From a virus (lineage: Duplodnaviria > Heunggongvirae > Uroviricota > Caudoviricetes), in IMG/VR virus record IMGVR_UViG_2565956624_000022, positions 1 to 28,080 of that record: a stretch of DNA of 28,080 nucleotides. The stretch is one strand, 5' to 3'. Both the position numbers and the translations under genes were made by a program. This document shows positions 24,407 through 27,310 of this stretch, piece by piece. The first letter of the stretch is position 1. Each line of letters opens with the position of its first letter. The notes beneath the pieces were generated by a model that saw only the letters and a program-made list of their open reading frames with translations, had not been told where the DNA came from and ran no database searches.

Positions 24407-25882
24407 CTAAAGTGAATCTATTCCATTTTTCCAAATAAGAACTTTTTTGTCTTGTATTTTATGAGTGCTATCAGGCTGCCCAAACTGTTTTATGGCCTTT
24501 TCCTCTTGCTCTACATCATCAGCAATTAAAAAATTAGCTCCTTTTTGGTACCATTCTTTTTTTGATAACCAATTATATGGTGTGAATCTATCACCATACG
24601 ACTCAAATGGAGCTACGTTGATATCACTAAATCCAGCAACAGATGATGCAAACCAAAATGATGCATAACCTCTTTGTAGTTTATTTTTTATTAAGAAATC
24701 TCTTAATTCTATTGTAATATCATTTTTATTAACAATGTTTTTTGTTGTTGCCATCGTTGGCAACGATAACGCAATAACGATTAATGATATTAGTAAATTT
24801 GTCTTCACTGGTAAGGAGAAAGAATTTCTAGCAATCACAATTGACATGAAAATAAACGTTGGGACTATGTATCTAATTGAGAAAAGATTTGTTGGCCTGT
24901 CACTTGAAATATAGGCAATCAACATGACTAATGATGATACAATAAGAACCTGGTCAATAAAATCAATTTCTTTAAATTTAAGAATGTTTTTATAAGATAA
25001 AAATAAGAATACAAAAATGAAAAACACCTTTATCATGGTGAATAATGAGTTAAAGCTACCTATCTCCATTCCAAACGCGTACCCACCAAAAAATTTGAAT
25101 ACGCCCATGATAACAAGAGATATGTTGCTTGTTATTTGTTGAAACTCTACTATGTGAGGTTTGGTTATGCCTGGCAGGTTAAATCCACCAAGCTTAATGA
25201 ATATAAATGATATGAGCTCAGCAATAAATATAGATGATATAGTGAAAACCAACAATAACAAATCATTAGTATTCAACGAATCTCTTTTCATTAGAGAAGC
25301 ATACATTCTATATATGCAAACAAAAACTATAGGTATTATAAAGGCATATTTAGATATATCATCACTAAAAACAAGCAACGATAACATAAATACATATGGA
25401 AAAAGTAATTTTAAATCATTTTTCTTTCTGTATCTATCTATTATTAGTATGATCGCCAGCATGTAAATGTACGCACCAATATGTATACATGCTATAAGCA
25501 TTATACTTGATGAGAAAACCGTTGGAATTCCAAATACAGAAAGAACAGGCCATAACGATGCCCTACTTTTAGTATGAGAGATATATAGCGATAGTGTTAC
25601 TAATATAGACATGAAAACTCCAGGCACAATATAGTACAGATTTTCATTAAATCCTATTATTTTTATCGCTATAGCATATGGTATTATTTCTGTGAAATAG
25701 AATGATACAGTTGATAAATCCCACCCACTGAGAAAAATATTTCCTTCAGTAATATCCCTTGCCTCTCTGAATGAAGACATGACATCTGAGTTTGGAATTA
25801 TGTTTTTAGCAATCATTGAGTAAATTATTGATAATACAATAAATGTTGCCAGCCAATATAAAAGCTCAAGCTTCTTGCTCAT
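24407..25882 (-). CDS. Type-specific O-antigen glucosyltransferase (GtrC / Gtr(type) family), polytopic membrane protein
   Basis: 491 aa, many predicted TM helices, visibly AT-rich coding sequence; ATGA-coupled downstream of gtrA-gtrB, the canonical position of the serotype-specific transferase. Confidence 0.8.
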
Positions 25883-26796
25883 TTTTTACCCTTAAGTACA
25901 TACTTTGGACGCTGCTTAACTTCAATGTAAATTCTACCAATATACTCACCGAGCACTCCAATCCCAATTAACTGGATGCCGCCAAGAAATAATATTGATA
26001 CAAGAATTGAAGGGTATCCAGGTACATTATTACCAAAAATTAATTTATCAATTATCATCCATGAACCGTATGTAAATGATATACATGCAATAAATAACCC
26101 AATATAGGTCCACATGCGAAGCGGGAATGTTGAGAAGCTAGTGATCCCTTCCAGCGCCAAGTTCCATAGCTTCCATCCATTGAACTTTGTGCTTCCTGCA
26201 ACGCGTTCTGCTCGCGCATATTCTACGACATCGGTTCGACCACCAACCCAGCTCAGCACACCCTTCATAAACAGGTTTCGTTCTGGCATGAGCTTAATGT
26301 TTTCTACTACTTCGCGAGACATGAGCCGGAAGTCGCCAACATTCTCTTCTATCTGAGGGTTGCTGATTTTGTTATGAAGTTTATAGAACCACTCAGCAGA
26401 TTTACGCTTCAGCCTGCTGTCAGTGGAGCGGTCAGAGCGTTTAGCCAGAACCATATCTGCACCGGCCTGCCATTTCTCTATCAAGTGAGGAATAACTTCG
26501 ATAGGGTCTTGCAGATCAACGTCAATCGGGATAATTGCCTCCCCGGTAGCATGGTCCAGACCTGCGAACAGGGCGGGTTCTTTGCCGAAGTTACGTGTGA
26601 ACGACAGCGAAACCACAAGCGGGTCGGCAACAGCAAGCTCGTTGATAATTGATTCTGTAGCGTCTTTGCTGCCATCGTTTATGAAGACTATCTCGACTTC
26701 ATGCTGCTGAAGCCCTTCAAATTCGCGCACGGTTTTATAAAAAATAGGTATCGTGGCCTCTTCGTTAAAGACCGGAACGACTAAAGAAATTTTCAT
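25879..26796 (-). CDS. gtrB: Bactoprenol glucosyltransferase GtrB (GT2 family)
   Basis: 305 aa; N-terminal GT2 fold ([11 protein letters not shown]...INDGSKD, DVDLQDP) plus two C-terminal TM helices; operon position after gtrA. Confidence 0.9.
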
Positions 26797-27155
26797 TTCG
26801 CATCCCTAAAGACAATGTATTTTGAATAAATGAACCCGCATATCAGGCTGATGGCGGAGAAGGTGACAAGAGTTATCATCGGGGGAAGTGCGCATCTATC
26901 AGCAGCCCATCCAACAGTAGCACTGAGTGTTCCCATGAACCCGACATATAACATGTAGCGCATCGTTGTAGTTGATGATTTGAATGTGAATTTTGCATTC
27001 GCGAAGAAGCTAAAACTCACAGCCACAACGAAACCTGCGAAGTTTGCCAGAGCCTGATTGGTATGCGCGGCATAGATACATACACTAAAAACCACCCAGT
27101 GTATAAGTGTGTTCAGCACACCAATCGAGGTGTACCTTGCAAATATATTTAACAT
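26793..27155 (-). CDS. gtrA: GtrA, bactoprenol-linked glucose translocase (flippase)
   Basis: 120 aa, four predicted TM segments; first gene of the gtrA-gtrB-gtr(type) operon. Confidence 0.9.
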
Positions 27156-27310
27156 TTATTTAATCAATGAGTTCTGAAAGGTATGAAGTCTATCATCCAA
27201 GTCTCAATCGATCGATACTTGCGGTAGTTGATGAGGAAAACTCTGGTACACAAAGCTTTGCACTGGACTGCAAGGTGTTGTGCTTCTCTGGAGTGCGATA
27301 TGTTTGATGA

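Follow-up and report, generated by a model that had tools for sequence, protein, structure and literature searches.

Within the 28,080-nucleotide stretch of DNA that was analyzed (hereafter the window), the gtr operon consists of three minus-strand open reading frames with successive start/stop overlaps of 4 bp (ATGA). The first gene, gtrA (positions 26793–27155), encodes a small membrane protein of 120 residues that matches PF04138 (GtrA/DPMS_TM, E = 5e-14) and PHROG 2224, 'GtrA-like O-antigen conversion' (E = 1.5e-68); its product is the proposed flippase for undecaprenyl-phosphate-glucose. It is followed by gtrB (25879–26796), with a 4-bp overlap between the gtrA stop and the gtrB start; gtrB codes for a 305-residue GT2 bactoprenol glucosyltransferase (PF00535, E = 3e-30; PHROGs 841/34335, 'GtrB-like O-antigen conversion', E = 7e-166 or better). 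The third gene (24407–25882), whose first 4 bp coincide with the end of gtrB, stop codon included, encodes the type-specific transferase, a protein of 491 residues that is of the O44 type and appears in the literature as Ec042-0853 or 'WbbG'. Its GC content is 30.6%, compared with 44.3% in gtrB, 43.8% in gtrA and 46.6% in the remaining phage DNA to the left, so the AT-richness that the original prediction had pointed out is borne out by the numbers. Megablast aligns gtrAB with its counterparts in the Shigella phages SfII, SfIV, SfV and SfI at ~80% nucleotide identity. The order of a GtrA-family protein, a GT2 GtrB and an AT-rich polytopic transferase is that of a Gtr system, as is the location at the end of a prophage, beside att and with a terminator between att and gtrA.

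On its left side the operon is bordered by tail genes. The stretch at 23057–24314 (plus strand; PF02413, E = 1e-32) comprises the C-terminal part of a tail-fiber gene, a tail-fiber assembly gene (23704–24108) and an inverted Tfa remnant, and the operon sits between the tail-fiber assembly gene and the lambda att core. The open reading frames, the Pfam matches and an exact att core thus agree with the predicted placement of a gtrA-gtrB-gtr(type) operon between tail genes and attR. A GC-rich hairpin at ~24370–24389, on the 3′ side of the 491-aa gene, was considered as a terminator and rejected: for transcription on the minus strand its T-run is misplaced, the plus strand shows an A-run, it was not called by the terminator scan and it is not a canonical terminator.

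On the right, gtrA is preceded by a leader of about 87 nt on the minus strand (27156–27243), which is common to the Shigella Sf phages and includes the presumed promoter region. The megablast matches to SfII, SfIV, SfV and SfI extend to position 27242, and homology to lambda begins at ~27245. Cassette and leader thus abut a lambda sib-attP module directly. Positions 27245–27513 of the window align with lambda 27470–27738 at ~93% identity, through sib/tI, the P arm and the core. The tI/sib intrinsic terminator (27311–27353, minus strand) is near-identical to that of lambda and points from att towards gtrA; its hairpin with the following UUUUUU has a dG of −24.1 kcal/mol (z = −4.9), and 0 of 200 shuffled sequences were equally stable. 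A tI/sib-like terminator beside the operon had been predicted, and the predicted end of the locus at 27310 falls at the gtrA-side foot of tI and correctly brackets the operon together with its leader. Beyond tI lies the P arm of a lambda-type attP (27354–27498, plus strand), which is aligned with lambda 27579–27723, a segment that carries annotated Int-binding sites. The 15-bp lambda core, GCTTTTTTATACTAA, occurs once and exactly, at 27499–27513 (plus strand), and marks the right end of the prophage; no match was found in 100 shuffles. The P arm and the core form the junction attR = P-O-B′, and to the right of the core are the host B′ arm and then ybhB (27604–28080, minus strand; NCBIfam PRK10257, E = 2e-103, and RefSeq annotation), the host gene on the bio side of attB.

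A consensus scan found no sigma-70 site in the gtrA leader (27156–27243), in which, given its conservation with the Sf phages, the promoter presumably lies. Phase variation of the Salmonella Dam/OxyR type was considered and rejected: the interval from gtrA to the att core has a single GATC (27210), where paired sites would be expected, and this argues against such a switch.

The window has a 100% identical match in E. coli FDAARGOS_1288, whose genome shows the remainder of the prophage. A second copy of the core adjoins ybhC, so the insertion is located between ybhC and ybhB. The integrase is identical to lambda Int at 352 of 356 residues, the lambdoid early region is complete, and the complete element is ~46 kb. 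With Int, both cores, the P arm and the ybhC/ybhB site all present, the integration module is of the lambda type, and the description of the element as a lambda-att phage next to ybhB stands. ARAGORN detected no tRNA in the window, so integration here is not at a tRNA gene. The virion module of the phage contains a DUF1073 portal, DUF2213, a DUF3383 sheath and DUF2612, and none of 50,697 phage records is closely related to it.

The gtr locus itself is already known. The 491-aa protein is identical at 489 of 491 positions (99.6%) to WP_000038425.1 (Ec042-0853) of E. coli 042, a strain of serotype O44:H18, and the GtrB protein is identical to WP_000703624.1 of the same strain. A block corresponding to 23057–28080, which starts inside the tail-fiber gene, is common to the window and the 042 prophage 042p1/ROD15 and is 99.0% identical. 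The two elements therefore have in common the gtr genes, the tail-fiber tip with Tfa, the lambda att/tI junction and the ybhB flank; they differ in that 042p1 has an SfV-like module with an HK97 head and a Mu-like tail. Chaudhuri et al. (2010, PMC2808357) described this prophage as bounded by a '15bp direct repeat', with gtrAB and Ec042-0853 as cargo for O-antigen modification, and reported that strain 042 expresses O44. Serogroups O17, O44, O73, O77 and O106 have a single gene cluster in common, as well as the Man-Man-Man-GlcNAc backbone; what sets them apart is the glucose branches that gtr genes add, and it is such a branch that distinguishes O44 from O77 (PMC7685785). In their passages on the 042 prophage, PMC10304059 and PMC7685785, citing Wang et al. 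2007, attribute the O44 glucose side-branch to Ec042-0853 together with gtrAB in a prophage between ybhB and ybhC. The wording of the latter passage suggests that the assignment was made because the prophage was found, rather than from a knockout, and the biochemistry may therefore lack direct proof.

These observations change the reading of the locus in several respects. The original prediction held that the O-antigen specificity of the transferase cannot be told from sequence; near-identity to a protein assigned to the O44 branch speaks against this. The same prediction took identity with an already characterised Gtr type as the outcome that would count against it, and in substance this is what the match to Ec042-0853 amounts to. 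It also implied that gtr cargo on a lambda-att phage is new, yet the 042 prophage with gtrAB had already been described between ybhB and ybhC. The locus has been in the literature since 2007–2010 and is real but ordinary. Both features of an O44-type transferase, near-identity to the 042 protein and a host with the O77-group backbone, were found: FDAARGOS_1288 carries the O17/O44/O73/O77/O106 wzx and has a single gtrAB locus.

The 491-aa protein is multi-spanning, with ~12 hydrophobic helices and a C-terminal alpha/beta domain. It has no Pfam match even at E ≤ 10 and none in NCBIfam, and a tblastn search of 50,697 phage records was also negative; in PHROGs it is found only in families of unknown function, which cover its C-terminal half. 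It is not a member of PF14264 (Glucos_trans_II), the family of the Shigella GtrI, II, IV, V and X type. The comparison with the Shigella types that had been proposed as a check was run and showed no similarity (hhalign probability of 0.9% with SfII GtrII), and there was no detectable sequence similarity to any other characterised Gtr type. Its homologs form only 18 clusters in a set of 5.8 billion proteins, and those clusters with source names are from Enterobacterales. In every other context that was examined, the homolog is the third gene after gtrA-gtrB. This includes Salmonella Carrau, in which a homolog with 33% identity belongs to a gtr island that has a copy of the thrW 46-mer on each side. 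We take Carrau to be serogroup O:6,14, with the same backbone as the O77 group.

A fold could be proposed from a structural model. The AlphaFold (AF2) model built from the family alignment has a pLDDT of 84.6 and a pTM of 0.86, and all 16 PDB matches that Foldseek returned at E ≤ 1e-3 are GT-C enzymes (PglB, STT3 and ArnT); AftA, AftB and Emb were also matched. No acyltransferase-3 or SGNH folds were among the matches. In the predicted structure, a multi-helix membrane domain is combined with a soluble periplasmic domain, as in the GT-C fold, and the protein is thus predicted to be a GT-C glycosyltransferase. The predicted fold is shared with ArnT, PglB/STT3, AftA/AftB and Emb at a Foldseek probability of 1.0 and a TM-score of ~0.5, whereas sequence identity to these enzymes is 9–14% and their acceptors differ. 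A polyprenyl-phosphate sugar donor and action in the periplasm would be expected to be common to all of them. The candidate catalytic residues are two nearly invariant acidic residues after TM1, D33 and D43, and there is an FSDD motif at 172–175. The predicted GT-C fold and the acidic residues would fit a periplasm-facing polyprenyl-phosphate-sugar transferase, and in the Shigella model (PMC7685785) type-specific Gtr enzymes act in this way.

When the operon is compared with those of Shigella flexneri phages SfI, SfII, SfIV, SfV and SfX, the overall organization is common to both. The order gtrA-gtrB-gtr(type) and the AT-rich type gene are the same, and the operon lies at the prophage end beside att, opposite int. 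The SfII order of int, attP, terminator, gtrA, gtrB and gtrII follows the same logic as the window. The differences lie in the neighboring modules and in the third gene: the Sf phages have a 46-bp thrW att and a different integrase, whereas the window has the lambda int/att module; the Sf type-specific enzymes are in PF14264, whereas the 491-aa protein is outside it; and the acceptor of the Sf enzymes is a rhamnose/GlcNAc backbone, whereas the host of the window phage has a mannan-type backbone.

The distribution of the third gene was determined by searching 5,426 complete E. coli genomes with a concatenated query of the 491-aa gene and the O77-group wzx of 042. The gene is present in 12 records, one genome being deposited twice. 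Ten of the 12 records also carry the O17/O44/O73/O77/O106 wzx, which is found in 94 of the 5,426 genomes overall (hypergeometric P of ~1e-16, not corrected for clonality or for the genome deposited twice). In O77-group hosts the gene is on at least two different phage backbones, that of the SfV-like 042p1 and that of the window phage, and the stretch at 23057–24314 stays with the gtr cassette on different backbones. In independent isolates, and in four phage contexts, the three gtr open reading frames are intact and 98.6–100% conserved. The two carriers without the O77-group wzx, ET650 and 300081, have other surroundings. In ET650 the O44-type cassette lies within a P2-like prophage, between tail-fiber assembly and sheath genes, and is accompanied by a fossil lambda attR with tI, the P arm, the core and a diverged B′ arm. 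In 300081 the cassette adjoins the 46-bp thrW fragment that is also found between gtrA and int in SfII. In these two strains, either the acceptor is not unique to the O77-group backbone or the cassette is silent. The contrast that had been drawn with tRNA-integrating serotype-converting phages is only modular, since the same cassette is next to a thrW att in 300081. Because the cassette has lambda, thrW and P2-type neighbors, its lambda-att location is no departure from known biology. Two paralogs of the 491-aa protein, at 62% and 40% identity (P0002 and P0003), were considered as markers of other O77-group serogroups (such as O73 or O106) and dropped, as neither was found in any of the 5,426 genomes.

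A second allele occupies the same position. In 35 records, an unrelated GtrC of 495 residues that belongs to PF14264 is in the identical slot at ybhB; 33 of these carriers are of the O77 group, including K12a, the O17:H18 reference strain, and none of the 35 contains the 491-aa gene. The two proteins are not detectably related (BLASTP E = 1.9; hhalign probability of 1.5%), and the segment swapped between the alleles is exactly 24315–25878, i.e. the type gene plus 92 nt. On either side the loci correspond, with 97.5% DNA identity in gtrAB and with the tail-fiber flank (up to 24314), att and the ybhB site in common. The 495-aa GtrC thus looks like the O17 determinant, which presumably adds glucose at another position. 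A literature search returned no published statement of an O17 assignment for the 495-aa gene or of the 491-aa family, and the main text of PMC13188871 names only K12a, as O17:H18, and gives no serology that links gtrC alleles to agglutination types.

Taken together, the data very probably describe an intact O44-type serotype-converting gtr operon that a complete ~46 kb lambdoid prophage carries as a moron at its attR end, in a host with the O77 backbone. The 042 literature assignment, as given in the passages of PMC10304059 and PMC7685785 cited above, and the wzx co-occurrence point to glucose transfer from Und-P-Glc to a defined residue of the O-unit. By analogy with the three-step Shigella model (PMC7685785), GtrB would move glucose from UDP-glucose to undecaprenyl phosphate at the cytoplasmic face of the inner membrane, GtrA would flip Und-P-Glc to the periplasmic face, and the 491-aa enzyme with its predicted GT-C fold would put the glucose on one position of the Man-Man-Man-GlcNAc repeat; we likewise infer the acceptor position, the promoter and a role in phage exclusion. 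This addition would convert the unbranched O77 backbone to O44. Lambda tI would keep transcripts from running into the operon, those from ybhB in the lysogen and those from int in the circular phage, and transcription in the lysogen probably starts in the operon's own leader. The added glucose would change the serotype, and phages that depend on the unmodified O-antigen would probably no longer adsorb. Such receptor masking is proposed here from what is generally known of gtr-bearing phages.

Three other explanations were weighed against this one. The most probable of them, though still improbable, is that the gtr operon is functional but acts on an acceptor other than the O44 position, such as another residue, an ECA or core glycan or another backbone, in which case the O44 assignment in the literature would be coincidental. 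The assignment appears, from the wording of the passage in PMC7685785, to be genomic only, and the two carriers without an O77-group cluster would be accommodated by such an acceptor. However, 042 is serologically O44 and megablast finds a single gtrAB locus in it, the gene is strongly enriched in O77-group genomes on its different prophage backbones, and the O17 reference strain has a different gtrC in the same slot, as would be expected if the slot sets the serogroup.

It is very unlikely that the third gene encodes another kind of O-antigen modifier behind gtrAB, e.g. an O-acetyltransferase, and not a glucosyltransferase. Some Salmonella GtrC families are acyltransferases, for example O-acetyltransferases, and a protein that lacks both Pfam/NCBIfam matches and similarity to the PF14264 Gtr proteins could be one of these. 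Against this, the confident model matches GT-C glycosyltransferases only, the gene is translationally coupled to an intact gtrB, and the O44/O77 difference is described as a glucose branch (PMC7685785). Slightly less probable again is a silent remnant that is unexpressed in the lysogen. The leader between tI and gtrA lacks a consensus promoter, and tI stops read-through from ybhB, as such a remnant would allow, but the intactness and conservation of the three reading frames in their several phage contexts, the conservation of the leader with functional Shigella phages and the expression of O44 by 042 (PMC2808357) all speak for an active operon.

The serotype-converting operon would explain why FDAARGOS_1288 should type as O44 and not as O77 or O17, and it provides a clean E. 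coli counterpart of Shigella serotype conversion. In-silico serotyping of O17/O44/O73/O77/O106 could be made finer with the gtrC allele, although the practical value of this is modest; what remains of interest is the use of the swapped gtrC alleles for typing, and the uncharacterised GT-C family. For a broader reading we consider the chances to be about even: that the slot between gtrB and the tail-fiber flank is a swappable serogroup switch of the O77 group, and that the 491-aa protein founds an unmodelled GT-C family for Man-Man-Man-GlcNAc, of which the 33% identical protein of Salmonella serovar Carrau may be a member. In such a switch, located at the ybhB/lambda-att site among others, the 491-aa GT-C gene may give O44, the 495-aa PF14264 gene O17, and neither gene O77 or other members of the group. 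Recent outbreak papers still give the O17/O44/O73/O77/O106 group only as 'O77g' (PMC13188871). If the switch is real, typing of one gene would resolve the serogroups that wzx/wzy genoserotyping lumps under this name.

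The virion module of the window phage (window 1–22000) is composed of a DUF1073 portal, a DUF2213 protein, a Gp24-like cement protein, a DUF3383 sheath and a DUF2612/Phage_Wedge1 baseplate. No close DNA relative of this module was present among 50,697 deposited phage genomes, in which the best match to the structural region was a Vibrio phage (70% over 14% of the query). 042p1, the prophage of E. coli 042 that contains the same gtr cassette, has an SfV-like module that is completely unlike that of the window phage. The baseplate genes are separated from the tape-measure-like gene by an immI-like module (window 15885–16896), which encodes an Arc-family regulator together with an antirepressor that resembles P22 Ant. 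Phages Kapi1 and EC.P3 share ∼95% identity with this segment. Directly after the intact tail-fibre assembly gene, there is an inverted and truncated fragment of such a gene (24080–24205, minus strand), which is kept in all of the cassette contexts that were examined and may have been left behind by a tail-fibre segment that was once invertible.

A 46-bp sequence corresponding to the 3′ end of a tRNA-Thr gene, which we take to be thrW, is located beside gtr cassettes in three comparison loci. It adjoins gtrA of the O44-type cassette in E. coli 300081 (L012 7258–7303), and in the serotype-converting phage SfII it lies between gtrA and int (L010 2942–2987). In Salmonella Carrau, two copies (L005 4390–4435 and 8293–8338) are located on either side of a gtr island that includes a homologue 33% identical to the 491-aa protein. 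The O44-type cassette was also observed within a P2-like prophage of E. coli ET650 (NZ_CP100936.1; L011 4308–7500), flanked by a tail-fibre assembly gene and a tail sheath gene. It is accompanied by a fossil lambda attR with tI, the P arm, a core that matches exactly and a B′ arm that has diverged, which suggests that it was captured from the lysogen chromosome of a related species.

At ybhB, the slot of the 491-aa gene is also occupied by other alleles. One of them, P0003 (487 aa, 40% identical; L014 3725–7035), is a third allele, and the baseplate and tail-fibre products of its prophage are equal in length to those of the window phage. An IS200-type Y1 transposase adjoins P0003 in some contigs, and P0003 was found in none of 5,426 complete E. 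coli genomes. In 35 records, a 495-aa PF14264 GtrC that is unrelated to the 491-aa protein is swapped in exactly for the 491-aa gene at the ybhB/lambda-att site, and in no case do the two occur together in these records. The replaced segment spans window 24315–25878, with its counterpart in KK05-19 at L004 6216–7794. The carriers are O77-group strains in 33 of the 35 records and include the O17:H18 reference strain K12a. The 495-aa GtrC is probably the O17 determinant.
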